Source of the DNA: Saccostrea echinata | Lineage: Eukaryota | Assembly (NCBI RefSeq): GCF_033153115.1 | Contig: NW_026889796.1 | Span: forward strand, 8,928,001-8,992,000 | Direction of reading: 5' to 3' | DNA length: 64,000 nt | In this document: in pieces, positions 15,062 to 45,996 of the stretch | Layout of the letters: each line of letters opens with the position of its first letter | How positions within the stretch are numbered: position 1 is the stretch's first letter | Position numbers and translations under genes: made by a program | The notes under the pieces: model-generated | Database searches by the model: none | What the model was told of the DNA's origin: nothing | What the model saw: the letters and a program-made list of their open reading frames with translations, nothing else

Positions 15062-16610
15062 CTAATTCCTGCGGAAAATCTTCCGAATTCTCTGCAACAG
15101 TCCAACTTTCTCAGTATCTTTGGTTTTTCTTTTTTTCTGAAAAATACATCCATCAAATATTTCAAAACCAATATTCGTTTACACATAAGTGCTTCTAAAA
15201 CAAATGATTTATATTTTAAGTATTCGGGATCTTGAACTCACTGAGCAACAACATGCTCCACAAACAAACAGGCGCATCAGAGGGTGTCTCGTCAAATAAT
15301 TGCTCTCTACGTCAGTATCCGACTTGGATTCTTGGATGTGGGACTCAATTATCTGTTACAAACAAATAGAAATCTTATGAAAATCTTACATAACAAAGTT
15401 ATGCTATTATTTAAAAGACATATGTCTTGTTTTTGTTTGTTTTTATTTTGGTTAAATAAACTTTCAAGAAAGAAAGAAAACAAAATCGCCCCCCCCCCCC
15501 CGCTTCCTTAAAATTTTCGCCATCCATTTTGTGTTTGTTTTCTCCAAGATTAAAAATTTTTTACTATAATATATTGGAATTGAAATACTAACATTACTCG
15601 GTGGGAAAAAAATCTCCATTTTCTTACCTCCGTTGACAGAAGTGAAATTTCGGTATCGATAATTTCCAATCCAAATATATTCCTGTAATAGAGATCAAAT
15701 GAATTCATTTCAAAATTATCAATGCAAGCTATTGAATTATATCAATTGGAAATATGCCACACCTTAAAACTTTTTGCAAGTTAATATAACATACTTACAT
15801 TGTTCGATTTTTGGTGCTGCATGCAGCAGTTTTCCCATCCGACATGGTGGTTTGAGAATCTGAGCTCTGTAATTAGACACAGGTAGGTTAATAAACATAT
15901 TTTAAATCAGTTAAATCATTTCACATCTTGTACCAAAGATTGAAAAACAACATTATCTTACCTGTAACTCTTGGGGTATTGTGGTAGCACATTCTGTCCT
16001 ACTTGATTGTGTCTCAGCTGTGCTTATCGCCAGTGGTCTATTGTCTTCGTCCCATTCACGGGGAAGGTACTGAGCATGAATCTCACCAACTACAATTCCA
16101 GATTTGGCATCAAAGATGTGTACCAGTCTCTCCATACCCTGTATCACAGAATTGTCAATTCGGGACGCCTCGTCCGTTTTCTCAGGGGACGCATTACAGT
16201 TCGCTTCAGCCACTTGAATCTCTTTTTCTCTCAGTTGCAATAAGTGAGCATCTCTTTCTTTTTCAAAGACGTTTGTGTCTGCTGTGTCCTCATAGTCTTG
16301 AGCTTCATTTGATAATTTGGGGTCACGGAAGTCTTTGCTTTCTTCTTTCAAAGGAAATGCAGGTATCTAAAACAAGTTAAAACACAATAAACATACAATG
16401 GACATAACTTTTATGGAAGATTAAAAATATTAATATAACTATTGTTTGTAGCGTAACGTATTTATGTGCAATTTTTCTACCTTATAATTGCCCAATTCTG
16501 CTTCTACAACAGTACTCATGACGTTTGTTTGGCCTAGATGCTCCTGAGGCCCAGGGACATCTCCAGTATTCTGAAATTCACGATTTATATTTTTATGATT
16601 TCATGAACAC

Positions 16611-16641
<31 letters not shown>

Positions 16642-17514
16642 AGAGAGATCTTTTTTTTCCCAGAAACCTGTATCATAAATGACAAATTGCGCAGAATATG
16701 AACAATAATAATCAAATTTATTATAATATGTTGATGCTGATGAAAAAATACCTTTAACTTTTCTTCTTGTTCCACCATATCTGCCCAATTGTATGGGAAA
16801 GCTAATATTGCCAATTTGGCCTCCTGAAAAGGTACCGTAAAATTTATATCACATTGGCTATTTTGCCCACAATGTACTGTGTAGAATCAAAATAAATTGA
16901 AATTTCTTTACATGAAGTTAAATACACCTACCACACTGGTCACGGGGTCTTCTCCGAAATCCAAAATCTCGTTCTATAAAATCAAGACACGGATTAGAAA
17001 TTATTTGCAACAATTACATGAAAACATTATTAACGAAGTGGGTTTATTATAGATTTTCTAAAGCATTTTGAACATTTATAAATTGAATCATTCTAGTGTA
17101 TAAATTAATTTGTCTCCTGATATTGTAGGCAGTACAGATATCTCGGAACATTTAAAAAAAAAAAAAGGAACATTTTTATGTCCCTGTAGAAATGGCACAG
17201 AATACATAAAGCAAAGATAAAAGATATATCACATCAAAATGAGTTTATAAACTAGTTCATAGCGAATAGAGTAAAGAGCCTACTGTGGTCATAACTTTTA
17301 TAAAAGACTAATAATATCAAAATAACTATTGTTTGTAGCGTAACGTATTTATGTGCATTTTTTCTACCTTAGTATTGGCCAGTTCTGCCGTAGAAGATCC
17401 CGCTGCTTCCACAACAGTACTCATGATGTTTGTCTGGCCAAGATGCTCCTGAGGCTCAAGAACATCTCCATTATTCTGAAATTCACGATTTATATTTTTA
17501 TAATTTCATGAACA

Positions 17515-17560
<46 letters not shown>

Positions 17561-18105
17561 TTTTCCCAGGACCCTGTGTCAAAAATTACAAATTGTGCAG
17601 AATGTAAACAATAATAATCAAATATATCAAAATATGTTGATGTACAAATACCTTCAACTTCTCTTCTTGTTCCACCATATCTGCCCAATTGTATGGGAAA
17701 GCTAATATTGCCAATTTGGCCTCCTGAAAAGGTACCGTAAAATTTATATGACATTGGCTATTATGCCCACAATGTACTCTGTGGAATCAAAACTGAATTG
17801 AAATTTATCCATAAGTTAAATACACCTACCACACTGGTCACAGGGTCCTCTCCGAAATCCAAGATCTCGTTCTGTAAAATCAAGACACGGATTAGAAAAT
17901 AGCTGAAACCATTACATGATAACTTTTCTTTTTTTACCAAAGTAGGTTTATTATAGATTTTCAAAAGCATTTTGAACATTTATAAATTGAGTCATTCCTG
18001 TGAATTAATTACTTTTGTCATCTGATATTGCAGTCAATACCGACATCTTGAAATAAAAGTAGTAACAATTTTTACATTGTTACTCACCTGATTTTGGGTA
18101 TTCAT
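15062..18105 (-). CDS. Orphan protein copy 1 (385 aa, acidic/disordered, two NWADMVEQEE modules, C-terminal Cys cluster and basic tail)
   Basis: Twelve GT-AG exons 18105-18088, 17871-17830, 17723-17652, 17475-17368, 16973-16932, 16823-16752, 16570-16481, 16366-15962, 15866-15799, 15682-15628, 15352-15242, 15136-15062 splice into a 1158-nt open frame ending RLFVCGACCCSKKRKTKDTEKVGLLQRIRKIFRRN*. Confidence 0.82.
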
Positions 18106-18159
18106 TGTACTTCCAAGCACAGTTTTTTCTTTGATTAGATGACAACACTATTCTGCCAT

Positions 18160-18215
18160 TCGTTACCAACAAACTAAAGTTTACTGACGTCATAATAGCC
18201 ACTGTGACGTTGCAA
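18160..18215. promoter_or_regulatory. CRE palindrome with nearby RFX-like half site upstream of the orphan gene ATG
   Basis: TGACGTCA at 18185-18192, conserved at 23855-23862 and 42868-42875; neighbouring GTTACC/GGCAAC half X-box and a TGACGT half site in all three copies. Confidence 0.5.
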
Positions 18216-20793
18216 TTGCCGTGACGAATATCCTGCGCTAAAACATTATTCTCTCCGAATTTTGACTAACAAGTAGAATTCGAAACTGCATTTTGTCAAG
18301 ATTCTGTCCATTTTTCACGAAATTTAATCAATCTAATACATCAAAATAAGTTATAATTCTTTAGATCCTGCGCTTATTTCCCTTGTGCCAATAAATACAA
18401 ATGATTAGGGGAATTTTTTGAAAATGTAATTTCATTTTTCTCGTGGGGGGGGGGGGGGAGGGGGAGGGGGGGGTTTTGTCTGAACACAGAAGATTAGACT
18501 AGAATAGTTTAAACGTAAATTTTAATTTTACTGCTCGTTGTAAAAGAGTATTATTTTTTCTGTTTATTCTTACTTAATACACATGTATGTACAGCTTTCA
18601 GCAGGAAGTATTCATTCAATACAAAAGTGGAGGGGGGGGGGATTATTCTTATCAACCCTATACCATTCTAGTAAATTCTAATTATTTTCTTCAGTCTAGA
18701 ATAATCTCAATCAAAGGGCATTTAACGCTGAACTTTGATATTCCAATACAAATAGTGCGAGACAATTAATGTCAGCAGCTTTGAGAGATGGATCCTGCAT
18801 TTCTTCCGATGTTAGAAAACGAAAGTAGGGTTTACAGAGGCTGACATTTTGGACATCCAAAGTTGTCAGGAGAGGAAAATAGTTTTAGAAAACAGGATTG
18901 GTGTATAATGAAAACAATGCTGATTTACTGATAAACTTCATTTTGAGTTATTTAATGTTCTGAATGAAATAAATTAATTAGTTCACTGCAAGATACGAAA
19001 AATGCAGAGGGAAATCGTTAAGTGATTTATAAGGAAAACTTGCAAGGCCGGGGTGGATCCTCGCGTATCCGGAAAAAATAGATATATTTGAAATAATCAG
19101 TTGTTAGTGTTGAATTAATTGTAACTATCATAATTATAACCATGCATGCAATGTAAGAAGTTAAACTACGGCAAGGATTGCGTGGACTGCTATTTAATAG
19201 TATTTTTCAAGATTAATTCATTCTATATAGATTTAAAATCAATTCCACTTTTAAAATTGAAGAGAAATGCCTGACAGCAAAGCAAGAAATAATAAAGGAG
19301 GAACTGAATACCTTTATTGACACCTGAGAAAATTCTCAGTAAAATGTATATTTTACGTTTCTGTTCATCTGTACAGAATTTTAGCCACTACCAAAGTTAT
19401 TGTTCTTGCCGATAAAGTTCATAAATTTCTAGGTATCTGGGACAATGACAATTAAACTTTCTAGAAAGGTTAAACAGGGTCTTGACTACAGTACCCTGCA
19501 ATTTCGTTTCTTGTCGAAACGAGTTTAGAGAAATATTCTACGTTGCTATTGCACTGATGAGGGAAGGAGGGGGGGGGGGGGGTTAAGTTGATAAATATAA
19601 CATAAGACTATTACAAACACCAAAGCTTATTTTAAGGTATTTTGTAATTTGAGTACATTGTTGTTTTTAGAAAAAAAAAAAAAGAAAAAAAAAAGTCCGA
19701 ATCACACAGTATCCAATTCCCACTACCTTGGATTAGTTGTATATAATATTGAGCGGAGAAGAAGTCGAGATTAATTAGTATATAATAAAAATGTTGATTT
19801 TCAGATAGACCTCTTACTAGCTTTTTCATATTCTGAATGAGTTGATAGTTAGTTTAGTGAATATGAAATACATAAGAAATACAGAGGCGAGACTTTGTAA
19901 ATACAGAAAAATTCAAAACTTGGCCGAGACGGAAAGGGCGTTTTGAACACAGAAAGAAAAGATTGAAATAGGCATGTGTTTGGGTTAAACTAAATGTTAT
20001 ATCATAAATTAAATTCCATACATGCATTTTGAAAGGGAAACATGGCAATGAAAGTGTGAAATACTATTTACTGTCGAAAATCCCTATTTTTCGACATTGA
20101 TTAATTCTAAATAAATTAAAAATAAATTCCACTTGATAAATAAAAGGGGAATGCTTGATATAACAATGACATATCATATCATGGGAAATGAATTCTATTA
20201 TCGATATTTGAAGACATTGCTAGTTACAGATAAAACTCATTTCTCCGTTCGTCTGAATAAACTTTTAACCTCTAGTAAAGTTGCTGTTTTTGCCGATAAT
20301 CTTCATTATTTCTTTGTGCATTGGACAATGACCATAAGATGTTCCAGAAAGTTTTTCTCGAGTCTTGACTACCTTACCATGAAATTTTGTGTGGATCCAA
20401 GGCCTGTTTGAATTTTAGAAAAATATTCTGCGTTGGTTCGTTTTTTTTTTTTCAAAGAGCTCTTCACACAACACACAGAGTAATAAATGTAAGGGGAAAA
20501 AAAGTACTTGACATAGGAATACAATTAGTTCTGAATTCTGATTTCATTGAAAAGGAACAACAATATTTCATCTCCTAATTATATATTAGATCGATGTTTT
20601 TAAATTCTGTGCGTATGCTTATGATACTATAGTCACGTTATCATACTACTAGCCTTACATCCAGTCAACAGAACCAACTAAATCAAACAAAATAATGCAG
20701 GTAAAATAATTTAAGATTTAATAAATTCTAGAAAATATATCACAGATAAGCTTAAGAAATTCTTCAGAAACATTAACAGTCAGATATATTCAT

Positions 20794-23775
20794 CTAATTC
20801 CTGCGGAAAATCTTCCGAATTCTCTGCAACAGTCCAACTTTCTCATTATCTTTGGTTTTTCTTTTTTTCTGAAAAATACATCCATCAAATATTTCAAAAC
20901 CAATATTCGTTTACACACAAGTCCTTCTAAAATAAATGATTTATATTCTAAGTATTCAGGATCTTGAACTCACTGAGCAACAACATGCTCCACAAACAAA
21001 CAGGCGCATCAGAGGGTGTCTCGTCAAATAATTGCTCTCTACGTCAGTTTCCGACTTGGATTCTTGGATGCGAGACTCAATCATCTGTTACAAAGAAATA
21101 GAAATCTTATGAAAATCTTACGTAACAAAGTCATGCTATTCTTTAAAGACATATGTCTTGTTTTTGTTTGTTTTTATTTTGGTTAAATAAACTTTAAAAA
21201 AAAAATCGCTGACCCCCTCTCAAAATTTTCGCCATCCATTTTGTGTTTGTTTCCTCCAAGATTAAAAACATTTTACTATATTAAACAGGAATTGAAATAC
21301 TGACATTACTCTGAGGGAAAAAATCTCCATTTTCTTACCTCCGTTGACAGAAGTGAAATTTCTGTGTCCATAATCTCCAATCCAAGTATATTCCTGTAAC
21401 AGAGATCAAATGAGTTCATTTCAAAATTATCAATGCAAGCTATTGAATTATATCAATTGGAAATATGCCACACCTTAAAACTTTTTGTAAGTTTATATAA
21501 CATACTTACATTGTTTGATTTCTGGTGCTGCATGCAGCAGTTTTTCCATCCGACATGGTGGATTGAGAATCTGAGCTCTATAATTAGACACAGGTAGGTT
21601 AATAAACATTTTAAATCAGATAAATCGTTTCACATCTTGTACCAAAGATTCAAAAACAACATTATCTTACCTATGACTTTTGGGGTATTGTGGTAGCACA
21701 TTCTGTCCTACTTGATTGTGTCTCAGCTGTGCTTATCGCCAGTGGTCTATCGTCTTCGTCCCATTCACTGGGAAGGTACTGAGCATGAATTTCACCAACT
21801 ACAATTCCAGATTTGGCATCAAAGATGTGTACCAGTCTCTCCATACCCTGTATCACAGAATTGTCAATTCGGGACGCCTCATCCGTTTTCTCAGGGGACG
21901 CGTTACAGTTCGCTTCAGCCACTTGAATCTCTTTTTCTCTCAATTGCAATAAGTGAGCATCTCTTTCTTTTTCAAAGACGTTTGTGTCTGCTGTGTCCTC
22001 ATAGTCTTGAGCTTCATTTGATAATTTGGGGTCACGGAAGTCTTTGCTTTCTTCTTTCAAAGGAAATGCAGGTATCTAAAACAAGTTAAAACATGTAAGC
22101 ATACTATGGAGATAACTTTTATGAAAGACTAAAAGTATTAATATAACTATTGTTTGCAGTATAACGTATTTATTTGCAATTTTTCTACCTTATAATTGTC
22201 CAATTCTCCTGTAGAAGATCCCGCTGCTTCGACAACAGTACTCATGACGTTTTTCTGGCCTAGATGCTCCTGAGGCCCAGGGACATCTCCATTATTCTGA
22301 AATTCATGATTTATATTCTGATGATTTCATGAACGAGAGAGAGAGAGAGAGAGGGAGAGTTCTTTTTTCAAGAAACCTGTATCGTAAATTGTGCAGAATA
22401 TGAACAATAATAATCAAATTTATTATAATATGTTGATGCTGATGTAAAAATACCTTTAACTTCTCTTCTTGTTCCACCATATCTGCCCAATTGTATGGGA
22501 AAGCTAATATTGCCAATTTGGCCTCCTGAAAAGGTACCGTAAAATTTATATGACATTGGCTATTATGCCCACAATGTACTGTGTGGAATCAAAATAAATT
22601 GAAATTTCTTTACATGAAGTTAAATACACCTACCACACTGGTCACGGGGTCTTCTCCGAAATCCAAGATCTCGTTCTATAAAATCAAGACACGGATTAGA
22701 AATTAGTTTGAACAATTACATGGAAACATTATTAACAAATTAGGTTTATTAAAGATTTTCAAAAGCATTTTGAACATTTATAAATTGAATCATTCTAGTG
22801 TATGTATTAATTTGTCCCTTGATATTGCAGGCAGTACAGATATCTCGGAACATTTAAAAAAAAGGAACATTTTCATATTCTTGTAGAAATGGTACAGAAT
22901 ACATAAAGCAAAGATAAACATATTTCGCATCAAAATGAGTTATAAACTAGTTTATAGCGAATAGAGTAAAGAGCCTACTGTGGTCATAACTTTTATAAAA
23001 GACTAATAATATCAATATAACTTTTGTTTGTAGCGTAATGTATTTATTTACATTTTTACTACCTTAGTATTGGCCAGTTCTACTGTAGAAAATCCCGCTG
23101 CTTGGACAACAGTACTCATGATATTTGTCTGGCCAAGATGCTCCTGAGGCCCAGGGACATCTCCATCATTCTGAAATTCATGATTTATATTTTTATGATT
23201 TCATGAACACGAGAGAGAGGGAGAGAGAGATCTTTTTTCCAGGAACCTGTATCATAAATTGTGCAGAATATAAACAATAATAATCAAATTTATTATAATA
23301 TGTTGATGCTGATGTAAAAATACCTTTAACTTCTCTTCTTGTTCCACCATATCTGCCCAATTGTATGGGAAAGCTAATATTGCCAATTTGGCCTCCTGAA
23401 AAGGTACCGTAAAATTTATATGACATTGGCTATTATGCCCACAATGTACTTGTTGAATCGAAACTAAATTGAAATTTCATTATATGAAGTTAAATACACC
23501 TACCACACTGGTCACGGGGTCCTCTCCGAAATCCAAGATCTCGTTCTATAAAATCAAGACAAGGATTAAAAACTAGCTGAAACCATTACATGAAAACTTT
23601 TTTTTTACCAAAGTAGGTTTATTAAAGATTTTCAAAAGCATTTTGAACATTTATAAATTGAGTCATTCCTTGAATCAATTACTTTTTCCCCGGATATTGC
23701 AGTCAATACCGACATCTTGAAAAAAAAAATAGGAACAATTTTTGCATTGTAACCCACCTGATTTTGGGTATTCAT
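20794..23775 (-). pseudogene. Orphan protein copy 2 with a premature stop
   Basis: Same 12 exons (23775-23758, 23545-23504, 23395-23324, 23170-23063, 22675-22634, 22525-22454, 22296-22189, 22075-21671, 21577-21510, 21393-21339, 21084-20974, 20868-20794). The last codon of the large exon is TAG (21673-21671) where copies 1 and 3 have CAG. Confidence 0.78.
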
Positions 23776-24698
23776 TGTTCTTCCAAGCACAATATTTTCT
23801 TTGATTAGATGACAACACTATTCCGCCATTCGTTACCAACAAACTAAAGTTTACTGACGTCATAATAGCCATTGTGACGTTGCAATTGCCGTGACGAATA
23901 TCCTGCCCTAAAATATAATTCTCTCCGAATTTTGTCTCACAAGTTGTATTTGAAATTGCATTTTCTGAACATTCTGTCTAATTTTCATTAAGTTCAATCA
24001 ATCTAATACATCGAAATAAGTTATAATTATTGAGATTCTGCGCATATTTTCCTTGTTTTTGCGGGGGGAGGGTCTGAACACACAAGATTAAGCTAAAATA
24101 GATTAAACGTAAATTTTAATTTTACTGCTGGTTGTAAAAGAGTATTGTTTTTTTTTCTGTTTAGTCTTACTTAATATGTACAACTTTGAGAAGGAAGTAT
24201 TAATTTGAAAACAAAACTTGGGGGGGGGGGGGGTTTCCTTGTCATCCCTATACCATTCTAGTAAACTCTAACTATTTTCTTCGGTCTAGGATAAACTCAA
24301 TCAAAGGGCATTTAACGCTAATCTTTGATATTCCAATACAAATAGTGCGAGACAATTAATGTCAGCATTTTGAGGGATGGATTCTAAATTTCTTCCGGAA
24401 GAAGGGTTTACGGAGGCTGACATTTTGGACGCCGAAAGTTGTTGGGAGAGTAAAGTATTTTTTTGAAAACAGGATTGGTGTAAAATGAAAAATGTTGATT
24501 GACTGATAAACTTTATTTTTGATTATTTAATGTTCTGAATGAAATAAATTAATTAGTTCAGTGCAAGGTATGAAAAAAGCAGGGAGAAATTGTTAAGTGA
24601 TTTATATGGAAAACTTGCAAAGCCGGGGTGATCCTTGCATATCCGAAAAGAATAGATATATTTAAAGAATTAGTTGACTGTTGTTAGCGTTGAATTAA

Positions 24699-25127
24699 TT
24701 AAATTTCCATTTCTATTTGTTTTCTCTGTGATAACTATTTGAAAGTTAGTTGAGTTGATTTCTTGATCATTCTACCGGAATGTAAATTTGGTCAAGGAAA
24801 GGTTAGGAGCTAAGAAGGCCTAATATGCATGTAAATCTCGTGCGACTGTCTTTGTGTTTGACGTCGCGGGGACGACGATTGAAATTGACATGTGAGGCCT
24901 CGTGTAATTTAAATCTATTAGTCTAAATTTACAATTTTATTTCACAATGAAATGGAAATATAAGGAATCACTGTCTAGTTAGTAGAGTATGCCAGGGACA
25001 TCAACGATAGTTGGAAACGTTGGATAATTTATGCATAACGGGCGAAGTCCGTTATGCAAATTATCCCACGTTTCCAACTATCGTTGATGCCCTGGCATAC
25101 TCTACTAACTAGACAGTGATTCCTTAA
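24699..25127. mobile_element. Non-autonomous element ending in a ~165-bp near-perfect hairpin; present only in duplicate unit 2
   Basis: Absent at the equivalent site of unit 1 (~19120) and copy 3. Palindrome 24961-25126 closed by a C-GAA-G loop; TTAA at both ends. Confidence 0.82.
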
Positions 25128-25586
25128 GTATCTATTTATATCCATGCATGCAATGTAAGAAGTAAAAACAGGGCAAGGATTGCATGGACTGCTATTTAAT
25201 AGCAAAAATCGCAATTTTTCAAGATTGATTCATTCTTTTTAAAATTAAAATCAATCCCATTTAAGAAATTGAAGAAGAATACAACAAAGCAAGAGGTAAG
25301 GAAGGGGGAACTGAATATCTTTATTAACATCTGTTGTTGAACAGGCCTCTGATAAATTAGTTACATGTACCTTAGTGAATATGAAACACATAATAAATAT
25401 AGCGAGAGAATGTTATAGAAAAATTCAAAACTTCTCGTCTCTGTGTATTAGACTTGTCAAACCATTAGCCTCGCAGTCTATGAGATTGATCAACTCCATA
25501 TATCTCTGTATGCAGACAGTAACAAATTAACCTAATAATTGATTTATTTTCTCAAGGATCACATTGCGAGAGATTTAATCACAAGA

Positions 25587-29414: not shown

Positions 29415-31279
29415 CTATTTCTTTTTGGTTTTATCGTCCTTTTTCTCTTCCTCCTGTGCCTCCTCCCCCTCCTCTGGTTCGGGTATGGGTGGGGGTGCGA
29501 TGTGAGGGAATACATTTTCCCCATGATATGCAAGTTTTCCCTCCAATTTTAGCTGGCTTTCTATCTGTATAAGTCTGTTGAACAGGGCGATTCTTTCACC
29601 CCTCACTGGGGCCCCAATTTTGAAAAATCTTGCATTCATTCCAACAGCCTTTTTTGAGAAAAAAAATTGCAAATTTTACAATAAAATATGGAAGAAATGG
29701 GTCATAAATTTATCCTCTTTGAAATTTATCCTATTCAAATGATCTGAAAATATTTGGATATACAGGTATTTATCAATATGGAATCATAGAGTAAACATAA
29801 TTGTAAGAAACTGCATACCATGTCTGCTAAGAAAGTGTCAGTTGTCTCTCCGTAGCATGTAGTCAGTACAATTTGATTCTCTGCATCTGTAATCAAATAA
29901 CACATGAACATAATTCAAAAGTTTTCAAAATGACTCATTTACATGAGAACATTTTTTTTCAATTAAATATGAATGGTTTGGCACACTGTAACTTTGGTAT
30001 TCTGCATTGTAGGAACTACTCACCTTCCATTTTCTTTGCACAATCGAGGACATCTGTCACTGTGTTTAATTGGTCCATCTTGAGGATGATGCCACTGGTT
30101 TTAAATTCTTCTGTGAGCTCCTCCTCCAGCAGTTTGGCTGGGCGGGGGTAGGTGTGGTTACCCATCACGTAACACTGATCACTGATCCTCTCGCACAGTC
30201 TCATCCAATGTTCCTTTTCCTGTCATATACAAACAATTAAATATGCATGGATTGCAGTTACAACAAGACACACATGGGTCACATTGCTCACTTGAGCACT
30301 TTGACTAGGAAAAAGCAGAAATCAATTCAGTATTGAAAAGTTTAAATATAAATATAAATGTGGTTCCGATATTTAATCTTTTATTGAGGCCTTGCCCTAC
30401 CTCCAGGGACATGATTGGAACACATCTGAAACTGCTCTACCTGAGGATGCTTCTGAATTAATAAGACTGGGTTTGACGTTCTTGAGATATATCACTTATA
30501 TACTTTTTTATAACTGTGAAAACTTTTATCCCCTGTTGTGGCCTCACCAAACCCCCAGGGGTCATGATTTGAACAAACCTGAATCTACACTACCTGAAGA
30601 TACTTCCATATTAATATGACTAACCATGGCTTTGCTGTTCTTGAGAAGAAAATTTTTCAAGATTTTTCCTATATATTCCTATGTAAAACTTTGATCCTCC
30701 ATTGTGGTCCCATACTACCACTGGGGTTATGATTTGAACAAACCTAAATTTACACTACCTGAGGATGTTTCCATATCAATATGACTACACAAGAATTTGC
30801 TGTCCTTGAAAAGTTTTTTCAAGATTTTTTCCTATATATTCCTAGGTAAAACTTTTATCCCCAATTGTGGCCCCACCCTACACCCAGGGGTCATGATTTG
30901 AACAAACCTAAATCTACAATACCCGAGGATGCTTCCATATTAATATGACTCAACAAGACTTTGCTATTCTTCAGAAGATTTTCAAAGATTTTTCCTATTT
31001 ATTCCTTCATAAAACTTTGATCGCCCATTGTGGCCCCACCCTACCCCCAGAGGTCATGATTTGAATAAACTTGAATCAACACTTAGGTTTCACATAAGTT
31101 TCAACTTTTCTGCCCAGTGGTTTTTGAGAAGAAGATTTTTAAAAGGTACCACCAATTTTTCACTGTTTCTTAATTATCTCCCCTAGGAAGAGGGAGTGAC
31201 CCTTCATTTGAACAAATTTGAATTCCCTTCACCAAAGGATACTTTGTGCCAAGTTCTGTTGAAATTGGCCTAGTGATTT

Positions 31280-37300: not shown

Positions 37301-39863
37301 TACTTTGTCCATTTTTATTCCCTGCAATCAAAGAAGAAGCTGATGCAAAATTCACAAGCATGATGGCTTATTAGCATCCACTACAAAGTCAACACAGCAG
37401 TAATGTCTCATCAAAATTCAAAGGTCACAAATGCTGCTGCTTTTTATGAATGTGATCACAAAAAAAATGTTATTAAATGATTGTGGCATAACTTTGGACT
37501 TTTTCTGGGCAGTATAAATAAGTACAGAAACATATGCACATTTATATGCCTTATTGTATGTTTCATATTCCAGGATTTCCAAAATGAAGTACAAATATAA
37601 CTCCTTCAGTTTTACTTGTCTTATGTTGTCGGGTACACTCATTCAACACTATACTTACTGTTCACTGCTCCTGATTACAAATATTACAAAATTCATCAGT
37701 TTAAGAAAAAAACATGAACTTTATAATCTTGAAGTGAAATACACTGAACAGTATTTGGATCCACCTATGTAGAAAGATAAATTACATACTTCGCTGATGA
37801 TTTTCCTCCTTTCTTGCCACTTGTGCTAGCAGTATCCTCCTCCTTGACAGGAGTTGCCCTGTCCCCTCCTGACGCCGCTAGTTCAGCTGCTTCCTTGGCC
37901 AACCTTTCCTCCTCTTCAGCTTTTAGTTCTTCATAGAGCTTCCTGCAGAGCAAGCAAAGTTACTGAAACATTTAACATAACTTGTTATTTTCATACTAGT
38001 ATACTTTCTGGAAAAATTATTGTGAAAAATAATTACTCTTAAATATGTCTACAGGAAAATACATTGGCTCTAAATGCTACTTCATCTTTTGCCATTAAAT
38101 CTTTCAGAATTAAAAATTCAAGAACGATAGCTTGCATACATGTAGCTTCTTTTATCGGAGTCTACAACTAAGAAATAATATGCAGTATCCCCACAATCTG
38201 TCTACGTATAAAAACAGATAATTACGTTAGTATGTTATCTACATCTGACTGCAGGGCTGGGTCCACTCCCTGCAATCTGTTGTTGATGTCTCCATTAAGT
38301 AGAGCAATAGCTGCCTCTACACTGGCCTCTCTAGACTTGTCCTCCTCCTCCCGTTCCTCAGGCTTTGTGTTCTCGGGTAAGGAACTGTTTGTAGATGAAT
38401 TCAGAACTGTTGCAGCCAGCTACAAAAAATACCAAAATAATATCCAAAAATTTGCTCATAACTTTTGCATATTTTAAAAGCATATAATGCAGGAAAATAT
38501 TTTATGCAGATCTCATTATATCAATCAAAACCACTATACCTTTTTATTATTTCTTAATGTACAGTACATGTCTGCTTGAATTGTTGTCTGTCCTTTGCTA
38601 TCAAAACCATGTCTTGCTGATACCTATAATGGAATATGGAAGATAAAATTTGTAAAATGAAAAAAAAACAAGTTATGTCAAAAAATGCCTTTTTGCCAAA
38701 TCATACCCTCATATGCCATGTTATGAGTTGAGAGGTAGCATAATGATAAGGTAGGCCTAACTAAGACAGCAAGAAACCGTCTTTACTTCAAATTCTTAGG
38801 GTAACGGGTGGGTTCGCCCTAATTACATGTTCGCTCTGAGTGGTTTCACCCCAATTATACCTGTGTGTATTTTGGCAGTTTGCTATGACAAATTTTCAAT
38901 GTTTTATGGTTTTTGCGTGTGTGTTATGGGAAATGTTTTTATTGTATCTAAAGCGATCTATTCGTTACACCTATTTGATTACGATTTTAATAAAGTAAAT
39001 TTACTTCAATCAAAATTTGAGAAAAAGATGGAGATTGTTGGAATAAAATTATAAATTGAAACAATTGAACTAAACTTGTATATTTTACATACATGTGAAT
39101 TAAGTTGTTTTTTCACATGATTTTTTGAAGAAAAGTTCATATTATCTGTCGTTAAAATCAGAAATAATTATTTAGTATTGATCCACAACCATAATTAAAT
39201 TCAATTATTAAAGTGCTCAATAATTATGTTAATCTAAACTCAGTGATAAAACGACGTTTGTTTAAATAAACATCAAGTACACTGTATGATTGAAGAAAAC
39301 CACTCGGGGCGAATCCACTCAGGGTGAACAGGGAAACGCCCCGAAACCACTCAGCACGAACAGGTAGTAGGGGTGAAACCACCCAGATTCAATCTTAGGA
39401 GGGGGTCTACTTCTAATATAAAATGGTGGTGTGTGCAAGGGTGGAGTGGGGGTGTCACAAAGTCGTTTTAAGCCTTTGTAAGTAACTATGATCAAAAGCA
39501 AATTCTGTAGCACTAAAAACCACAATCTCCTACCAGATTCACCCTTGAATAGTACCTGTGATATGAGAGGTGTCTTCGCAAATTCTGCAAAGTAGTTTGC
39601 CTACAATAAAAACAAATTGAAAGTGTGAATTATTATATACATTCTTTAATTATATCAACACTAAATCTTTTTTACGTTCAAGGCAAAGTTTTGTAAAAAG
39701 TACGTACCAAATGTCCGTAAACATCGTTTGGATTGTCATAGAACATAGAATTTAATACTTCTTCCATTTTCTTTGGTACACCATTTTGATCGTAATACTT
39801 TACTGCTCTCTGCTTTAATTCGTATCTTTCTCGAGCCTCTGCTGTAGAACTTGCAGAGGCCAT
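29415..39863 (-). CDS. eno4: Enolase 4 (divergent, sperm/flagellum-associated enolase-like protein), ~592 aa
   Basis: Thirteen phase-consistent exons: 39863-39708, 39600-39556, 38623-38540, 38419-38226, 37942-37790, 35383-35218, 34591-34463, 34335-34273, 33877-33713, 31552-31427, 30219-30024, 29886-29819, 29648-29415. Enolase-fold motifs FDSKGQTTIQ, VPLYQHIA, IPIPMVTII, KEFMVVP, IIDP, GETTDTFLADMAVG, KIGAPVRGERIALFNRLIQIE, plus ENO4-type N-terminal extension and Lys/Glu-rich insert. Confidence 0.92.
30262..31384. mobile_element. Non-autonomous Helentron/HINE-type element with ~166-bp Cg170-like tandem core, in an eno4 intron
   Basis: Ends AACAAGA..CATGGG.CACATTGCTCACTTGAG and TCACTTGAGC..TAGCTCAGGTGAGCTAAAAA; 4-5 repeats of TTGTGGCCCCACCCTAC...GGGTCATGATTTGAACAAACTTGAATCTACACTACCTGAGGATGCTTCC. 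Confidence 0.9.
36349..36354 (-). CDS. eno4: Candidate 6-nt eno4 microexon
   Basis: CTGTTTCCAG|TAAGAA|GTGAGT; phase 2-2, compatible with the flanking exons. Confidence 0.4.
37138..37167 (-). CDS. eno4: Candidate 30-nt eno4 alternative exon
   Basis: TGTTTTCAATCAG|TAACAGCATTGCTGGTGATCTTGATTTCTT|GTAAGT; phase 2-2, open (NSIAGDLDF). Confidence 0.45.
37659..37670 (-). CDS. eno4: Candidate 12-nt eno4 microexon
   Basis: TTTGTAATCAG|GAGCAGTGAACA|GTAAGT; phase 2-2, open (SSE). Confidence 0.45.
38800..39390. mobile_element. MITE with GGGTGG(G)TTC(G/A)CCC subterminal repeats, possibly Mutator-like, in eno4 intron 2
   Basis: Left GTAACGGGTGGGTTCGCCC, right GGGTGAAACCACCCAGATTC; flanks AATTCTTAG and AATCTTAG resemble a ~9-bp TSD. 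Confidence 0.6.
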
Positions 39864-39960
39864 TTTGTGTTTATTTATTTTCTTGAAAAACTAAATTACT
39901 CCGCAGGTATTACCCTTTACACAGAATAAACAAGCAGTTCTTGTAAGCGTCTTCAAATAT

Positions 39961-39983
39961 CCGCCATATTCAACGTTGCTATG
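39961..39983. promoter_or_regulatory. YY1-like and RFX X-box-like motifs upstream of eno4
   Basis: CCGCCAT at 39961-39967 and GTTGCTATG at 39975-39983, about 100 nt upstream of the ATG. Confidence 0.4.
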
Positions 39984-41449
39984 TGGGTCAAGGGAATATT
40001 TTCGAACACATCAATTCGATTTGCATTTTTAATTATGTTCATTGTCTTATTTATTTTAAAAAAGATTTCTTTACAGAATACCTTCTATGTAAAAAGAACT
40101 TTGTTTAAAAAACGAAAATACGAAACTATGACAAGTGTTTGTTTTTTTTAAAACAATTCGTTCTGTATCAAATTCGTTTTCATGCGACAAACTATATATA
40201 ACCACGCCACATTCCCCCCAGATTTTGTAACGATTGTACAATAAATACACATCAAATAAAGTCAAAGTAAATGTAGAAATGCAGAGTGTGGTTGATCGAA
40301 AGAATCAAAATTGTCATTGATCGGAAGGAAGAGACAGTTTAATTGTGCTGAAATTCAATAATATAAATAAAGAAATTTGGAGAATGTGTTTAATTCTGTT
40401 GTAAGAATACGATCGTCTTCTTTATGTTTAAGGGAATTTGGAGGGAAGTAAGAAATGAATTCTTAACCGGATATCATTTGTGTTGATCAAGGCTGCTTTA
40501 GCATTTTCGCAGACGAGATTACACTAGATTAGCCTGTTAAGGTCAGACGACCTTAATAATATAATTTTTTTCCAAGAATTTGTTATTGATTGAAGTATTG
40601 CTACTTTAACAAGTTTCCTCTCAAAAATTAAGGTACCTTACCAGGCATTTGTGCAAGATACCAGAAGATGTTATTTACTATATAATCCTTTTTGGAAATC
40701 TTTTTGGAAAAGTTGAGTGTACGGACTGCACTCTGTAAATTTTTTTTTACCCACATCTAACGCATTATGCGAGGCAGTACGCATTGGTGAGACTGACATT
40801 TCGGTAAGACACGAGTATAAGCATATGTTATCTCAGTCCCACAGAGAGTCCAAAATATCTATGAAATTATATTAATCTGTTAGCTAGGGATGAGATCAAA
40901 ATTCGCTGTGTTGAAAAAAGGCAAATTCAACTACTTAGGGGAGGGGGAATAAAGAGTCCAAGAAGTTTTTGTTGTCCAACATCATAAATACACAAAATAA
41001 CCCCGGCGATACTTAATGTTACTAGTATTTTAAATGTTTTCTTTTTTTAAATTATATGAATAAACAAAAGAAATATAAGTTATTAACAGTGTAACAAATT
41101 TTAATATTTTATATTTGAAATTGAATCAACATTCGTCACATTGTCTTGAAGGGAAGAAGACGTTTTGGATGAAAGCTTTCTGATTTTAGTTGTGGGTTTT
41201 TTTTCAGTCTTGAAGTTTTTATCTCGTCCCTTGCATAAAAAAAAATTCATGTAACTTAAACGTTTTGCTATGTTGGTACAAATTGCCAGAAGCCGAAAAT
41301 TTCTCTTTCTGAGAGTAATTACGTTGTTATGGTAGCTGAAAAAAATTCGTAAGGGAAAGATAGCATGAAAAGGGCTAAAATAAGAGTACCACTGAAGTAA
41401 ATGCAGAGCATCAATCGGAAGCATTTAAATTGTTTTGCTTTTAATATGA

Positions 41450-41920
41450 AGCACCGAATTAATATAAACTCAAATAACTGAAGATGTATCTTTAATTATC
41501 TGAAGATATCAATATTCTTCTTGATCGATTGGCAGATAAATTCTCTTCATATACTTCATAAATGATTATCCTCAATTCTGAATTATTGCGCACTTTAACT
41601 CAAAATACTTGAAGCAGAAAGATATCTTGTTAATATGCCTCGAAAATTTTTAACTTTAGATGCAACAATTTTAAACTCTCTATTGAAACTGGGAGATGGA
41701 ATGGTCTCCCAAGAGAACAAAGGATTTGTACTTTATGTGATCTTATTAAGATTGGTGATGAATTTCATTATGTTTTTGAATGCACACAAAAAGAAATTAA
41801 AGAGGCAAGGTTAAAATATATTTCAAAATATCTCATATGCAGACCAAATATAGAGAAATTTAAACAACTTTTTTCAACAAGTTTTTCTGTATTGAAAAAA
41901 TTATGCAAATTTTGTAGTCA
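41450..41920 (+). mobile_element. 3' fragment of an RTE-X-like LINE (C-terminal CCHC zinc knuckle)
   Basis: From 41655 reads FRCNNFKLSIETGRWNGLPREQRICTLCDLIKIGDEFHYVFEC...RPNIEKFKQLF. Confidence 0.78.
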
Positions 41921-42957
41921 AGACCAGGTAAAAAAAACTTTCTAGAAAGTTTAATTTTCATTGTTCCATATACATGTACCTAGAAAATTATGAATTTTAT
42001 AAATTTGCACGAAGGTCAACTTGGGTAGTGACTAAAATTCTGTACAGATGAACAGAGACGTAAAATATAAATTTTACCGGAAATTTTTTCTTAGGTGTCA
42101 ATAAAGACATTCAGTTCCCCTTTTTATTGCTATGAGGTATTCTTCTTCTATTTTATAGGTGGAATTTATTTTAATTTTATATAGAATTAATTAATATTGA
42201 AAAATAGCGATTTTCGCTATTAAATAGCAGTCCATGCAATCCTTGTCCTGTTTTACTTCTTACATTGCATATATGAATTTAATTTATGATAGTTATAATT
42301 AATTCAACACTAGAAACTGTTCACAGGTTTCAAATGTACCAATTCTCTCTAAATCTAGACCGGTAAAAATAATTAGAATTTTCTGGCATGGTACAAGATT
42401 GAAAAGCCCTCCATCCCCATCCCCCCACCCCAAAAACAAGCAAACAAACAAACAAACAGAACAATTTTTTTTAAATTTAATATCGCCTGCCCAGAGTTAT
42501 ACATGTTAAGTAAAAATATACAGGAAAAAGTACTCTTTTTCAACCCGCAGTGAAAATCTAAATTTACATTTAAAATAATTTAGTCTAACCTTGTGTTCAG
42601 ATTTATATAAAAAAAAAATGAAAAGGCATTATTTTTTTTATTTATTCAATTATTTGTCTTTCTTGGCGCAAAGAAAATAAATACAGATTCTAAAATAATA
42701 TACAAGTGCATCTTATTTCGATGTATCGGACTGAGTGAAATTCATGAAAATTTAATTATTTTTACAGAATCTTGACAAAATGTAATTTCAAAAATTAACT
42801 TAGGAGGCAAAATTTGAAGAGAGCAGATATTCATCACATGACAATTGCAACGTCACAATAACAATTATGACGTCAGTAAACTTTAGCTTATTGGCAACGA
42901 ATGGTGGAATAGTGTTGTCGTCTAATCAAAGAAAAAAAATCTGTGCTTGGAAGTACA

Positions 42958-45900
42958 ATGGATACCCAAAGTCAGGTGAGTAGCAACTTTGAAAAAAGTT
43001 CAGCAACATATATGCATAATTCACTAGTTATAATATGTGCATTTCTCTCCAATCATTTTTTTAATTAATACAAAATTATCCTGACAATAGCGTTAGGAGA
43101 GTCCACTAAAAACTTGACAAAATATGCACTCTAAATATTTGAAGAAATTTTAGGATACAGGGATTTATTGTAATATAATTTAAAACAGTATTTCATGTTA
43201 ATATTGAACGAAAATAAATGCTTTTAATAAATCAAAATTACATAAAATAATAGGCTATAAAATAATTTTTATCAACTGTGATTTCAAACTCATTAAATAA
43301 AATAAGTTGTGGTTACAGGAGGGATTTTTATTATCTTCTATCAATACAAAGTACTATTCGCACAGGAGCACAACTTTTACAATTCTTAAGTGACATGAGT
43401 GTGCCACTATTCATGTTTCAAATCACTGTCTTTTATATGAAGTAAAATCGGGTGTTTTCTTCAAAATTTAATCAAAATACGATCAATTTATAGGTATTGT
43501 CTGCAATATCAGGGAACAAAACTTATTGATACACTGGAATGATTCAGTTTATAAATGTTCAAAATGCTTTGATACACTTTCAATAAACCTAATTTTATTA
43601 AGATTTCATCTAATGGTTCCAACTAGTTTCTAATTTATCCGTGTCTTGATTTTATAGAGCGAGATCTTGGATTTTGGAGAGGACCCCGTGACCAGTATGG
43701 TAGGTGTTTTTAACTTCATATAATGAAATTTCAGTTTAGTTTTGATTTCACACAGTACATTAGGGACAGATTAGCCAATGTCATATAAATTTTACGGTAC
43801 CTTTTCAGGAGGCCAAATTGGCAATATTAGCTTTCCCATACAATTGGGCAGATATGGTGGAACAAGAAGAGAAGTTAAAGGTATTTATATGTCAGTAATC
43901 AACATATTGCATATATTTGATTATGTATTGTTTATATTCAGCGCAAAATACCATTTATGAAACAGGTTCCTGGCAAACAAAATCACGTACATGTTAAAAG
44001 TTTTCTTTCTTGGAATGCAAAAGTAAATATGTTTTTTAAAGTATAATATCTTTCTCTCTCTCTCATATTTATGAAATTATAAAAATATAAATCGTAAATT
44101 TCAGAATAATGATGTCCCGCCTCAGGAGCATCTAGGCCAGAGTACTGTTGTCGAAGCAGCGGGATCTTCTACTGCAGAATTGGCCAATTCTAAGGTAGAA
44201 AAAAAATGTAAATAAATATGTTACAATAGTTATATTCATATACTTAGGGGTTAGGGTGAGAGTGTTCTCTCTGGCATGAGAGCTAGTCTTTGGGTTGGGG
44301 TTAGCTTTAGGTTTCCTGTTGGGCTAGGGTTAGCATTCAAAGAGGATTAGGGTTAGGCTGATGGGGTTATGCTGAAACTTAGTCTTTCATAAAAGTTATT
44401 CCATAGTATGCTTATTCTGTTTTAACTTGGTTTTAGATACCTGCATTTCCTTTAAAGAAAGAAAGCAAAGGCTTCTATGACCCAAAGTTATCAAATGAAG
44501 CCAACGACTATAAGGACTTAGACACAAATATATGTCCAAAACAAAGAAATTCTCACTTATTGCCTTATGGAGAAAAAGATATTCAAGAGACTGAAGCTAA
44601 CAGTAATGCGTCCCCTGAGAAAACGGACGAGGCGTCCCGAATTGACAATTCTGTGATACAGGGTATGGAGAGACTGGTACACATCTTTGATGCCAAATCT
44701 GGAATTGTAGTTGGTGAGATTCATGCTCAGTACCTTCCCCGTGAATGGGACGAAGACGATAGACCACCGGCGATAAGCACAGCTGAAACACAATCAAGTA
44801 GGATAGAATGTGGTGCCGCAATACCCCAAGAGTCACAGGTTAGATAATTTTTTTTTTTAATCTTTCGTAAAAGATGTGAAATGATTAAACTGGATAAAAT
44901 ATGTTTATTTACCTATCTGTGTCTAATTACAGAGCTCATATTCTCAAACCACCATGTGGGATGGACAAACTGCTACATGCAGCACCAATGGTGCAAAAAC
45001 TTCTAAATGCAGCGGCCCCGAAAATCGAAAAATGTAAGGATGAAATTTTAACTTACACAAAGTTTTAAGATGTGGCATATTTGATTTTCCATAATTCAAT
45101 AGCTTGCATTCTTAATTTTGAAATGAACGCATTTGATCTCTGTTACAGGAAAATACCTGGACTGGAAATCATAGACACAGAAATTCCTCTTCTTTCAACG
45201 GAAGTAAGAATATGATTTTTTTCCTCTCAATTATTTTTGCATGGATTTTATGACTAGACTGAGATTATGTTCTGAACATTGATGTTGATGTGGTTTAAAA
45301 TGAATTGTAAGGTTTATTCAATAGTAATACCTTGTGCTTTTGTTGATTTGTGTCATGAATTCTCGTACAAAGGCAATGTGAATAAAACCAAAAAAAGCTA
45401 ATTTAGGCGATCTCTAAAAATGTTCTTTTGTTGTCCGTATGTAACAATATTTAGTTCCCATTTCATATATTAAAATGTTTTGAATATCAGAGAGGACAAT
45501 CACAACATGGATGACGATTTTGTATTTTTTATTTTTTTTGGGGGGGGGGGGTTGCTTTTAGTTTTTGGTGGGGGGGGGGGGGGGGTTAGATTTATCTTAC
45601 CACAAAAAAAGAAAACTAAACTAAACAAACAAACAAACAAATGATGTCTTTCCAATAAATAGAATTTTGTTATTTAAGATTTCCATAAGATTTATATTTC
45701 TTTTTAACAGATTATTGAGTCCCACATCCAGGAATCAAAGTCGGAAACTGACGTAGAAAGCGATTATTTGACGAGACACCCTCTGATGCGCCTCTTTCTT
45801 TGTGGAGCATGTTGTTGCTCAGTGAGTACAAGTTCCCGAATACCTAAGATATAAATCATTTGTTTTAGAAGAACTTATCTGTAAACGAATATTGCATTTG

Positions 45901-45996
45901 AATATTTGATATAATTTTCAGAAAAAAGGAAAATCCAAGGATATTGAGAAAGTTGGACTGTTGCAGAGAATCCGGAAGATTTTCCGAAGGAATTAA
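42958..45996 (+). CDS. Orphan protein copy 3 (321 aa, single NWADMVEQEE module)
   Basis: Nine GT-AG exons 42958-42975, 43658-43699, 43809-43880, 44105-44194, 44437-44838, 44933-45033, 45149-45203, 45711-45821, 45922-45996; open from MDTQSQ to RLFLCGACCCSKKGKSKDIEKVGLLQRIRKIFRRN*. Confidence 0.82.
44242..44382 (+). repeat. Degenerate telomere-like (TTAGGG) insertion with ACTTAG direct repeats
   Basis: TTAGGGGTTAGGG...GGGTTGGGGTTAG...CTAGGGTTAG...TTAGGGTTAGG; absent from the same intron in copies 1 and 2. Confidence 0.75.

Follow-up and report, generated by a model that had tools for sequence, protein, structure and literature searches.

What kind of protein is encoded by three related multi-exon genes, here called copies A, B and C, that lie within one 64,000-nucleotide stretch of the Saccostrea echinata genome (the window), and to what kind of family do they belong? 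A sequence-only reading had described a lineage-specific family of three copies with a putatively lipid-anchored C-terminus. The three copies are real and spliced, and they belong to a much larger family characterised by a repeated N-terminal module.

Gene structure of the window copies

The three genes were modelled as follows, the module being described below.

18105-15062, minus strand: copy A, 12 coding exons, 385 aa, two modules
18105-18088, 17871-17830, 17723-17652, 17475-17368, 16973-16932, 16823-16752, minus strand: copy A, exons 1-6
16570-16481, 16366-15962, 15866-15799, 15682-15628, 15352-15242, 15136-15062, minus strand: copy A, exons 7-12
23775-20794, minus strand: copy B, 12 coding exons, two modules, premature stop
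23775-23758, 23545-23504, 23395-23324, 23170-23063, 22675-22634, 22525-22454, minus strand: copy B, exons 1-6
22296-22189, 22075-21671, 21577-21510, 21393-21339, 21084-20974, 20868-20794, minus strand: copy B, exons 7-12
21673-21671, minus strand: in-frame TAG of copy B at codon 289, the last of the large exon, with the Cys/basic tail lost downstream
42958-45996, plus strand: copy C, 9 coding exons, 321 aa, open frame, one module
42958-42975, 43658-43699, 43809-43880, 44105-44194, 44437-44838, plus strand: copy C, exons 1-5
44933-45033, 45149-45203, 45711-45821, 45922-45996, plus strand: copy C, exons 6-9

In these models, built from window coordinates, every intron of A, B and C is bounded by GT..AG, and all introns are in phase 0 except intron 6|7, which is in phase 2. 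Copies A and B possess 12 exons and copy C nine because exons 2-3-4 are tandemly duplicated in A and B. The spliced translation of copy A (P0001) is identical to S. echinata RefSeq XP_061194784.1 (LOC133202942), and the encoded proteins carry net charges of -29 (A), -28 (B) and -16 (C). Joints with GT..AG at five of the eight introns of copy C are present in contigs from public runs; no run is recorded as RNA, and the kind of the four runs used is a software guess. The exon models, the GT..AG introns and the joined contigs for copy C bear out the earlier proposal of a real spliced gene of 9-12 exons. The peptides named in that proposal are all present where it had placed them, although the GLEIIDTEI exon reads GLEIMDTEI at exon 7 of copy B, and the three rebuilt copies exist, but the in-frame stop of copy B had been overlooked.

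The predicted model of P0001 has pLDDT < 50 for 276 of its 385 residues and, outside the module, shows order only in one hairpin and two C-terminal helices, in agreement with the low-complexity protein with short conserved islands that had been described.

Family size, spread and selection

One 24-residue exon (the module exon) matches 80 places in the S. echinata genome, in 61 clusters on 17 contigs, and close copies of the window genes number at least nine within this far larger family, so that the supposed family of three gives way to at least nine close copies and about 60 genomic loci. A single-sequence HMMER search of a protein database identified relatives in S. cucullata and Crassostrea virginica, and at the search depth reached, a restriction of the family to oysters, and with it the claim of lineage specificity, is supported. 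No Pfam family lay above cut-off for P0001, eight relatives and 21 modules. No mention of four of the family's gene or protein identifiers was found in full-text literature, six identifiers are absent from the supplement of PMC12564202, and no literature on this family was found; the family is previously unstudied.

Among the copies dN/dS is 0.17-0.59, not near 1, indicating purifying selection, and this had been named beforehand as a check. The module exhibits values of 0-0.23 in 26 of 28 pairs and the C-terminal exons 0.15-0.39 among the eight pairs listed; values for the linker are 0.70-2.5 among the three linker pairs listed.

The spread over 17 contigs, the stops carried by copy B and copy F (C47:2.19 Mb) and a repeat fragment beside several copies would fit a family that is cargo of mobile elements, or one of selfish or decaying repeats without host function. 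The fragment lies upstream and/or downstream of several copies (40 scored of 276 candidates, 40/40 matching) and occurs in the window as follows.

41913..42344, plus strand: dispersed repeat fragment, also at 46420-46829, 19077-19490, 19963-20390 and 25125-25333

Such an origin is nonetheless very improbable: introns are retained and spliced contigs exist, dN/dS is well below 1, and dS between A and C (0.203) matches their intron divergence (0.217). Seven dispersed loci encode an identical 20-residue core, with DNA identity to one of them mostly 66-74% and at two 84-91%, and their likeness is limited to the stretch from the CRE (see below) to the 3' gene body. The long frames in the three 30-kb regions listed are, by inspection, RT-like, zinc-finger-like and tetraspanin-like, and none is common between loci. 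The window genes are spliced and selected members of a large oyster family of proteins predicted to be mostly disordered.

A repeated module with a core like the SLIP1-binding motif

The hallmark of the family is a 38-residue module, present in one to three repeats per protein and missing in its full form from 4 of 28 family proteins examined, whose core resembles the SLIP1-binding motif (SBM).

43658..43880, plus strand: module of copy C, exon 2 with LDFG and exon 3 with the SBM-like W-x3-V-E-x2-E helix
17652..17871, minus strand: module 1 of copy A
16752..16973, minus strand: module 2 of copy A
23324..23545, minus strand: module 1 of copy B
22454..22675, minus strand: module 2 of copy B

The core consensus, N/S-W-small-D/E-x-V-E-x-x-E, is a predicted helix, and SLBP contacts SLIP1 through N93, W94, G95 (small pocket), D96, V98, E99 and E102 (PMC3763545). 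A set of 46 modules from 24 proteins was compiled with a search pattern that demanded W or R at position 0 and left +4, +5 and +8 free. Position 0 is W in 45 modules and +4 is V in all 46; the acidic offsets are D/E at +2 in 40, E at +5 in 45 and E at +8 in 45 (D in one). Offset -1 is N/S in 42, and +1 is A/S/C in 35, V in 10 and I in one, with window copies A, B and C possessing Asn at -1 and Ala at +1, while the SBM non-contact offsets +3 and +6 are variable across the set. The 49 module exons taken from the genome read V (46) or M (3) at +4, E at +5 in 48, and E (46) or D (3) at +8, with E at +7 in only 26; the variants M at +4 and D at +8 are those present in the oyster SLBP candidate motif. 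AlphaFold2 places the core helix at residues 27-37, beginning at the Trp, as in the SBM.

On the family profile, the N-terminal motif of oyster eIF3g scores 19.2 bits, where members reach 22.4-39.3 and none of 2,022 background Trp 11-mers exceeds 8.8; these 11-mers are mostly non-coding translation and hence an easy control. The oyster SLBP candidate motif scores only 4.9 bits, a value reached by 2 of the 2,022 background peptides. When a profile of 21 modules was compared with the PDB, the second-best match was the SLBP peptide in 4JHK, a crystal structure of zebrafish SLBP bound to SLIP1; at E 0.4 this is a lead only, and a stretch of APOBEC2, which is unrelated, reached an equal score. Judged by its residues and their spacing, the N-terminal module is likely an SBM, and the Trp-acidic protein-binding motif proposed earlier is upheld in the form of this conserved core, a putative binding helix.

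The i, i+4, i+5, i+8 pattern is, however, expected of any binding helix, and the Val or Ile found at +1 in 11 of the 46 modules may not suit a pocket that is shallow and has been described for Gly/Ala. Conservation is equally strong in the first 25 module residues (LDFG, K-L-x-I-L-x-F-x-Y), which find no equivalent in the flank of the oyster SLBP candidate, and the module may therefore have a different or an additional partner. A possible though rather unlikely explanation is that the module is a new motif or mini-domain for another partner, with the SBM likeness a convergent acidic helix and the proteins scaffolds unrelated to translation. The conserved upstream two thirds, the prediction of two helices (14-20 and 27-37, pLDDT 79), the E of only 0.4 for the SLBP peptide and the lack of a Pfam family above cut-off are consistent with another partner, whereas the coincidence of conserved and variable core offsets with the SBM contact map, and the score of the oyster eIF3g motif beside family members, argue for the SBM.

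Searches of the ESM Atlas with the whole protein and the module gave no usable match, and a PDB sequence search with P0001 and a Foldseek search with the module model each returned 0 matches. A PGPGW Pfam match to the ILAFPY.W stretch fell below threshold, and clathrin-box, gamma-ear, LIR, PP1 SILK/RVxF and cyclin RxL readings, compared by eye with the column counts, suit only part of the family. No Pfam match to SLBP RNA-binding, eIF3g or DEAD-box domains was found in P0001 or the eight relatives, and the SLBP and eIF3g genes of the genome are located elsewhere than the family loci. Derivation of the module from either gene is not supported because their motif exons do not possess the lead-in residues.

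C-terminal tail, upstream element and neighbouring gene

Two further islands were located in copy C.

44671..44739, plus strand: conserved beta-hairpin island RLVHIFDAK...AQYL
45759..45996, plus strand: C-terminal LF-L-CG motif, Cys cluster, basic stretch and amphipathic helix in exons 8-9, a candidate membrane anchor

The hairpin island (strands 229-233 and 240-245 in the P0001 model) is confined to the window subfamily and its nearest relatives. Among 375 sequence windows of P0001 the tail helix has the greatest hydrophobic moment, and it ranks first in all seven complete close relatives, P0010 included; no long hydrophobic segment was seen in the window subfamily. The Cys-cluster exon is present in all nine close copies, sitting behind the stop in copy B, and matches 11 genomic places, compared with the 61 clusters of the module exon; other subfamilies possess LFLFG or LFFFG in its place, and a basic amphipathic tail is common to many family members. 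S-palmitoylated peripheral membrane proteins such as SNAP25 and GAP43 have Cys clusters beside basic or amphipathic segments. The window subfamily resembles them in its Cys cluster, lysine-rich stretch and amphipathic C-terminal helix, but has no homology to them, its acylation is putative, and the Cys cluster is missing in other oyster subfamilies. From its composition and its top hydrophobic moment the tail is likely a membrane anchor in the window subfamily, which fits the earlier Cys/basic tail claim for this subfamily, but not as a family-wide trait.

Upstream of the genes lies a CRE.

18185..18192: CRE (TGACGTCA) of A, 80 nt upstream of the start codon
23855..23862: CRE of B, 80 nt upstream of the start codon
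42868..42875: CRE of C, about 83 nt upstream of the start codon
About 39863-29415, minus strand: enolase-like gene between B and C, a neighbour only and outside the family

The CRE is present upstream in 9/9 close copies and in 28/29 distant loci, and downstream in 0/29, against a background of 0.094 per 1.5 kb, counts that are not independent because the loci are related. The CRE-like promoter recognised earlier is thus conserved, while the RFX-like site noted with it is a half-site in only five of nine close copies. An upstream in-frame ORF that starts at an ATG inside the CRE stays open in A-E but is not preserved in F-I, and was dismissed as an explanation of the conserved 12-mer. The enolase-like gene (Enolase_C E 0.01-0.02 on two exons, below the Pfam cut-off), which we take to be eno4 by its architecture, lies head to head with copy C at a distance of 3.1 kb. 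The meaning once given to this neighbourhood is not supported, with six of nine close copies and nearly all distant loci located elsewhere. The EWDED stretch has no conserved W-D/E motif of the kinesin-light-chain W-acidic cargo type.

These features bear on a further explanation, in which the proteins serve germ cells or cilia as palmitoylated membrane adaptors, share their regulation with eno4, and depend for their function on the lipid anchor and on kinesin-light-chain-type Trp-acidic motifs. It draws on the tail of the close copies and nearest relatives, with its Cys cluster, basic stretch and amphipathic helix, on the dN/dS of the C-terminal exons, on the proximity of copy C to eno4, and on mammalian spermatid genes that are driven from CRE sites via CREM, as described in two articles (PMC10454534, PMC3285179). 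Yet EWDED or EWEED, once regarded as a conserved island, is present in only five of nine close copies and in none of seven other relatives aligned over that stretch, the Cys-cluster exon is far less widespread than the module exon, the RFX-like half-site is inconstant, and eno4 adjoins only three copies. This explanation is improbable for the family; a lipid anchor may hold for the window subfamily but is not the core of the family.

MIF4G adaptors and a proposed function

A PAIP1 gene is present in the S. echinata genome (C10:10.25-10.27 Mb), and SLIP1 and CTIF were not found by the searches made, whose matches read as eIF4G1, eIF4G2, UPF2 and PAIP1; no literature on SLIP1/MIF4GD/CTIF was found that mentions oyster. 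PAIP1, CTIF and SLIP1 all bind SBMs, and residues R239 and Q240 of the human PAIP1 groove were mutated, according to a preprint (bioRxiv 10.64898/2026.07.31.742013). One of these two residues reads Ser in oyster PAIP1 by our own mapping. A complex prediction for the module with oyster PAIP1 residues 76-312 scored 0.00 and gives no verdict, the run having used neither alignments nor control complexes and a tool unproven on peptides.

Given the match of the module core to the SBM, the family proteins are likely decoys or tethers for SLIP1, CTIF and PAIP1. The explanation we favour, at somewhat under an even chance, is that disordered, multivalent SBM mimics sequester or relocate these adaptors, with the window subfamily likely membrane-tethered. 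The repeated module would sit in the SBM groove of a MIF4G adaptor (PAIP1, CTIF or SLIP1), and since the family proteins have neither an RNA-binding nor a catalytic domain, the bound adaptor would be sequestered or moved elsewhere. Avidity could arise from tandem modules 38-76 residues apart, the two sites of the SLIP1 dimer being 65 A apart. Competition with DDX19, eIF3g and SLBP may weaken export-coupled, pioneer-round or histone mRNA translation or steer it elsewhere. Window subfamily members would be tethered to membrane via S-acylated cysteines and the basic amphipathic helix, and a CREB/ATF-type factor might switch the family together in one cell state, such as gametogenesis or stress.

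The cellular SBM proteins SLBP, DDX19 and eIF3g possess one motif each, joined to an RNA-binding, helicase or eIF3 domain, as far as the sources describe (PMC3763545; bioRxiv 10.64898/2026.07.31.742013). The oyster module shares with them the same residues at the same spacing, a disordered N-terminal region and a helix predicted from the Trp, and the oyster eIF3g motif is near-identical to the module core. Unlike them, an oyster family protein carries between one and three motifs, each preceded by a conserved lead-in of 25 residues, and has no folded domain. The family occupies about 60 loci, many of its members have a basic amphipathic tail, and outside the motif it is not homologous to the known SBM proteins. 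The 4E-BPs and PAIP2 are translation inhibitors that are disordered and imitate a docking motif. The proposed competition by a disordered protein bearing the docking motif alone is like theirs, whereas the oyster target would be the MIF4G groove rather than eIF4E or PABP, and the oyster proteins are multivalent, multi-copy, lineage-restricted and unrelated in sequence. The SARS coronavirus Nsp3 SUD bound to PAIP1 (PDB 6YXJ), as described in the preprint, is a foreign protein in the SBM groove of PAIP1, which demonstrates that the groove is open to co-option (bioRxiv 10.64898/2026.07.31.742013). Unlike the oyster family, and compared by description only, Nsp3 SUD is viral and folded and is reported there to enhance viral translation.

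In its boldest form, which we hold to be doubtful, the proposal is that about 60 CRE-controlled rock-oyster genes encode multivalent, partly membrane-anchored SBM mimics, a host '4E-BP equivalent' for PAIP1/CTIF/SLIP1 that, in one cell state, rewires the translation of histone mRNA and translation coupled to mRNA export. The common promoter element predicts co-expression across the family. If the SBM reading is true, one large 'uncharacterized' lineage-specific oyster gene family would gain a testable function, its roughly 95 natural variants (46 from proteins and 49 from the genome, overlapping) would map the residues tolerated by the groove, and an SBM that stands alone and is repeated would add a new mode of regulation of the SLIP1/CTIF/PAIP1 hub.

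Gene structure, splicing and selection

All the peptides named in the sequence-only reading were located in the window, and self-comparison of the window resolves its three family genes into a tandem pair on the minus strand (copies A and B) and one inverted gene on the plus strand (copy C). Models built from window coordinates give 12 coding exons each for copies A and B and 9 for copy C. The 385-aa product of copy A is identical to RefSeq XP_061194784.1, the Saccostrea echinata 'uncharacterized protein LOC133202942', and copy C encodes 321 aa; in copy B, codon 289 is an in-frame TAG, a stop overlooked in the earlier reading. Introns of all three copies are GT..AG throughout and, apart from one, in phase 0, so that exon duplication or skipping need not shift the reading frame; exons 2-3-4 are duplicated in copies A and B.

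Splicing of copy C was checked in contigs from four public runs, presumed to be RNA, of two studies. GT..AG joints were found for at least five introns, those between exons 2 and 3, 5 and 6, 6 and 7, 7 and 8, and 8 and 9 (15 of 25 joints listed). In one contig exon 4 is followed by exon 3, the pattern expected of a two-module transcript, and a joint omitting exons 6-7 was seen in three runs. Joint letters specific to A, B and the further close copies E and G indicate that several copies are spliced. Pairwise Nei-Gojobori comparison of nine copies, the pairs being non-independent, gave whole-gene dN/dS of 0.17-0.59 across 36 of 36 pairs. In the 38-residue repeat unit, hereafter the module, dN/dS was 0-0.23 in 26 of 28 pairs, the other two (0.69 and 0.50) each having 3-4 differences; values were 0.15-0.39 in the C-terminal exons and 0.33-0.84 in the large exon (8 pairs listed for each), and 0.70-2.5 in two linker exons (3 pairs listed). 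Between A and C, dS (0.203) matches the divergence of the introns (0.217). The joints and the whole-gene ratios bear out the proposal of a spliced gene under selection, and the two objections raised with it, missing spliced transcripts and dN/dS near 1, therefore fail.

Other features of the window are as follows:
1159-1467, 7394-7867 and 8075-8230, minus strand: tandem genes with a repeated exon for small secreted-looking proteins, which have a signal-like start, then amphipathic Ala/Gln-rich helices, and nothing over cut-off in Pfam
13771-14723 and 56557-57246: non-LTR retroelement remains, two stretches that match at 82% over 520 bases and resemble RT fragments by eye, one of them adjoining the 3' flank of copy A
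30380-31083 and 58750-59617: tandem arrays of a ~160-bp repeat, one in an intron of the enolase-like gene
48000-50100 and 54170-58600, minus strand: tandem pair of genes for Gfo/Idh/MocA oxidoreductases, with 75-85% identity between their exons and a 36-bp minisatellite close to each; an N stretch at 54302-54514 falls within the second gene
62212-63986, plus strand: remains of a non-LTR retroelement, with an RVT_1 match at 63471-63983

Family size and distribution

The family had been described as three-copy, a count that the genome does not sustain. Searches with the large exon and the Cys-cluster exon returned 9 and 11 loci, respectively, and the 24-residue exon 3 alone, which holds the Trp core of the module, matched at least 80 places at E up to 1 (from 91 candidates) in at least 61 clusters on 17 contigs, the lowest-scoring matches being weak taken singly. 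A recognisable module exon is present in 29 of 30 loci cut out from this match list. A HMMER search of 1.84 billion representatives found 24 matches: 5 from S. echinata, 17 from S. cucullata, one from Crassostrea virginica and one apple LRR protein, which was treated as a chance match. By sequence, at the HMMER depth reached, the family is confined to oysters and expanded in Saccostrea. That it represents mobile-element cargo is very improbable. Its proteins are annotated by automatic names only, and nothing on them was found in the literature covered, from which subscription journals were largely absent.

Members have in common the module, in 1-3 copies (Trp-to-Trp spacing 38-76), followed by a long variable linker, and many also possess a C-terminal helix that is basic and amphipathic, together with an LF-(L/F)-(C/F)-G motif. 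Specific to the window's subfamily are a hairpin island, the GLE-I-D-EI exon and the Cys cluster. EWDED, previously listed as a conserved island, is a recent feature present in 5 of 9 close copies, and proximity to eno4, previously considered meaningful, is limited to three copies.

Family loci at G000:C62:4.57-4.59 Mb and G000:C54:28.52-28.54 Mb, on different contigs, share 95-99% identity across most of 20 kb, as would result from either a recent segmental duplication or haplotypes left uncollapsed. Copy F (L014, G000:C47:2.19 Mb) is decayed, with two in-frame stops, an altered acceptor and a 1.3-kb insertion, its module still being intact. At the close copy G000:C30:6.277 Mb (L016/L017), promoter, exon 1 and downstream exons are present and module exons 2-3 were not found. 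A subfamily at G000:C2:32.62 Mb, C1:49.20 Mb, C16:24.30 Mb, C29:33.84 Mb and C47 (several) has an identical module core followed by ~190-bp internal repeat arrays, suggesting a further repeated exon unit. The repeat fragment flanking the window's copies is also found in two tandem arrays, at G000:C12:18.19-18.21 Mb and C14:20.03-20.05 Mb, where it is spaced at regular intervals of ~2.27 kb and ~2.95 kb.

Likeness of the module to the SLIP1-binding motif

Pfam, Atlas, PDB by sequence and Foldseek gave no match naming the family proteins. With a profile of the module, the second match in PDB was the zebrafish SLBP peptide of the SLIP1-SLBP crystal (4JHK chain C; E 0.4). PMC3763545 describes the SLIP1-binding motif (SBM) as a helix starting at Trp94 with contacts by N93, W94, G95, D96, V98, E99 and E102; DBP5/DDX19 and eIF3g carry it as well, in their disordered N-termini, and the SLIP1 dimer has two SBM sites 65 A apart. 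PMC8373075 reports that DDX19B W6A/V10A loses binding to CTIF, which DDX19B tethers at the nuclear rim. Two preprints give PAIP1 as a third SBM binder in a system described as metazoan-wide (10.64898/2026.07.31.742013) and the SBM as present across metazoan SLBPs (10.64898/2026.10.14.759114).

Among 46 modules from 24 of 28 family proteins (plant match and three PAIP1 proteins excluded), SBM offsets -1, 0, +1 and +2 are occupied by N/S (42/46), W (45/46), A/S/C (35/46) and D/E (40/46), and offsets +4, +5 and +8 by V (46/46), E (45/46) and E (45/46); offsets +3 and +6 are variable, as is +7 in 49 genomic exons. Judged by residue pattern, the family proteins carry a putative SBM. Membership of the SLBP, eIF3g or DDX19 families was rejected. 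The motif of S. echinata eIF3g (SWAEQVEQVED, chosen by pattern; its small exon precedes the Pfam-matched exons by 2 kb) reaches 19.2 bits against the family profile, compared with 22.4-39.3 for members and a maximum of 8.8 for 2,022 background peptides, mostly non-coding; an SLBP candidate, DWAEEMEIRDR, likewise chosen by pattern, scores only 4.9 bits. AlphaFold2 predicts helices at module residues 14-20 and 27-37, and its model of the copy A product has pLDDT under 50 for 276 of 385 residues. The main gap in the SBM interpretation is the 25-residue lead-in of the module, which is equally conserved and which the SBM does not explain; binding of the module to some other, unnamed partner is a possible, if rather less likely, alternative.

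A PAIP1 gene is present in the S. echinata genome, and searches for SLIP1 and CTIF located neither. One exon of the PAIP1 locus (L093-L094, G000:C10:10.25-10.27 Mb), which is used alternatively, encodes a second PAM2-like motif. Matches to the PAM2 (PABP-binding) motif also lie in long open frames that recur on five contigs (L077, L078, L079, L080 and L087) that resemble retrotransposon gag-pol by eye.

A conserved promoter element

The CRE proposed earlier, TGACGTCA, lies ~80 nt upstream of the start codon and is invariant in 9 of 9 close copies between diverged flanks; the accompanying RFX-like half-site fared less well, being kept in 5 of 9. In 30 distant loci chosen from the match list, 29 with a module, a full CRE occurs within 1.5 kb upstream in 28 of 29 and downstream in 0 of 29 (background 10 sites in 159,169 bases), counts that reflect retention and not 28 independent events, since the loci share common ancestry. 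The sites lie in half-site clusters, often with a splice donor next, within ~100 bases, and similarity between dispersed copies starts at the CRE in most pairs listed. We infer that a CREB/ATF-type bZIP factor would act on the CRE. CREs serve stress genes besides CREM-driven spermatid genes, and germ-line expression of the family is therefore a guess. The abstracts of PMC10454534 and PMC3285179 describe CREM as driving spermatid genes in mammals.

A possible mechanism

The observed genes, their splicing and selection, the family, the motif pattern, the CRE and the partner gene form the basis for a mechanism to which we give slightly less than even chances: module proteins would dock MIF4G adaptors through SBM mimicry, and then compete or sequester or relocate them. 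Each module would dock in the SBM groove of PAIP1, CTIF or SLIP1, with avidity gained from tandem modules. Because the family proteins have no RNA-binding domain and are unable to bring in mRNA, the result would be competition with DDX19, eIF3g and SLBP, or an adaptor held elsewhere. In the window's subfamily, the Cys cluster, lysine-rich stretch and strongly amphipathic last helix would fix the protein to a membrane, and an adaptor held there would be a similar idea to CTIF held at the nuclear rim by DDX19. A membrane adaptor as the core function, as first proposed, is improbable. The proposed docking and competition would work similarly to 4E-BP and PAIP2, which are unrelated to the oyster family. 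It is conceivable, though on balance doubtful, that ~60 CRE-controlled oyster genes encode multivalent, partly membrane-anchored SBM mimics that would rewire adaptor-dependent translation.
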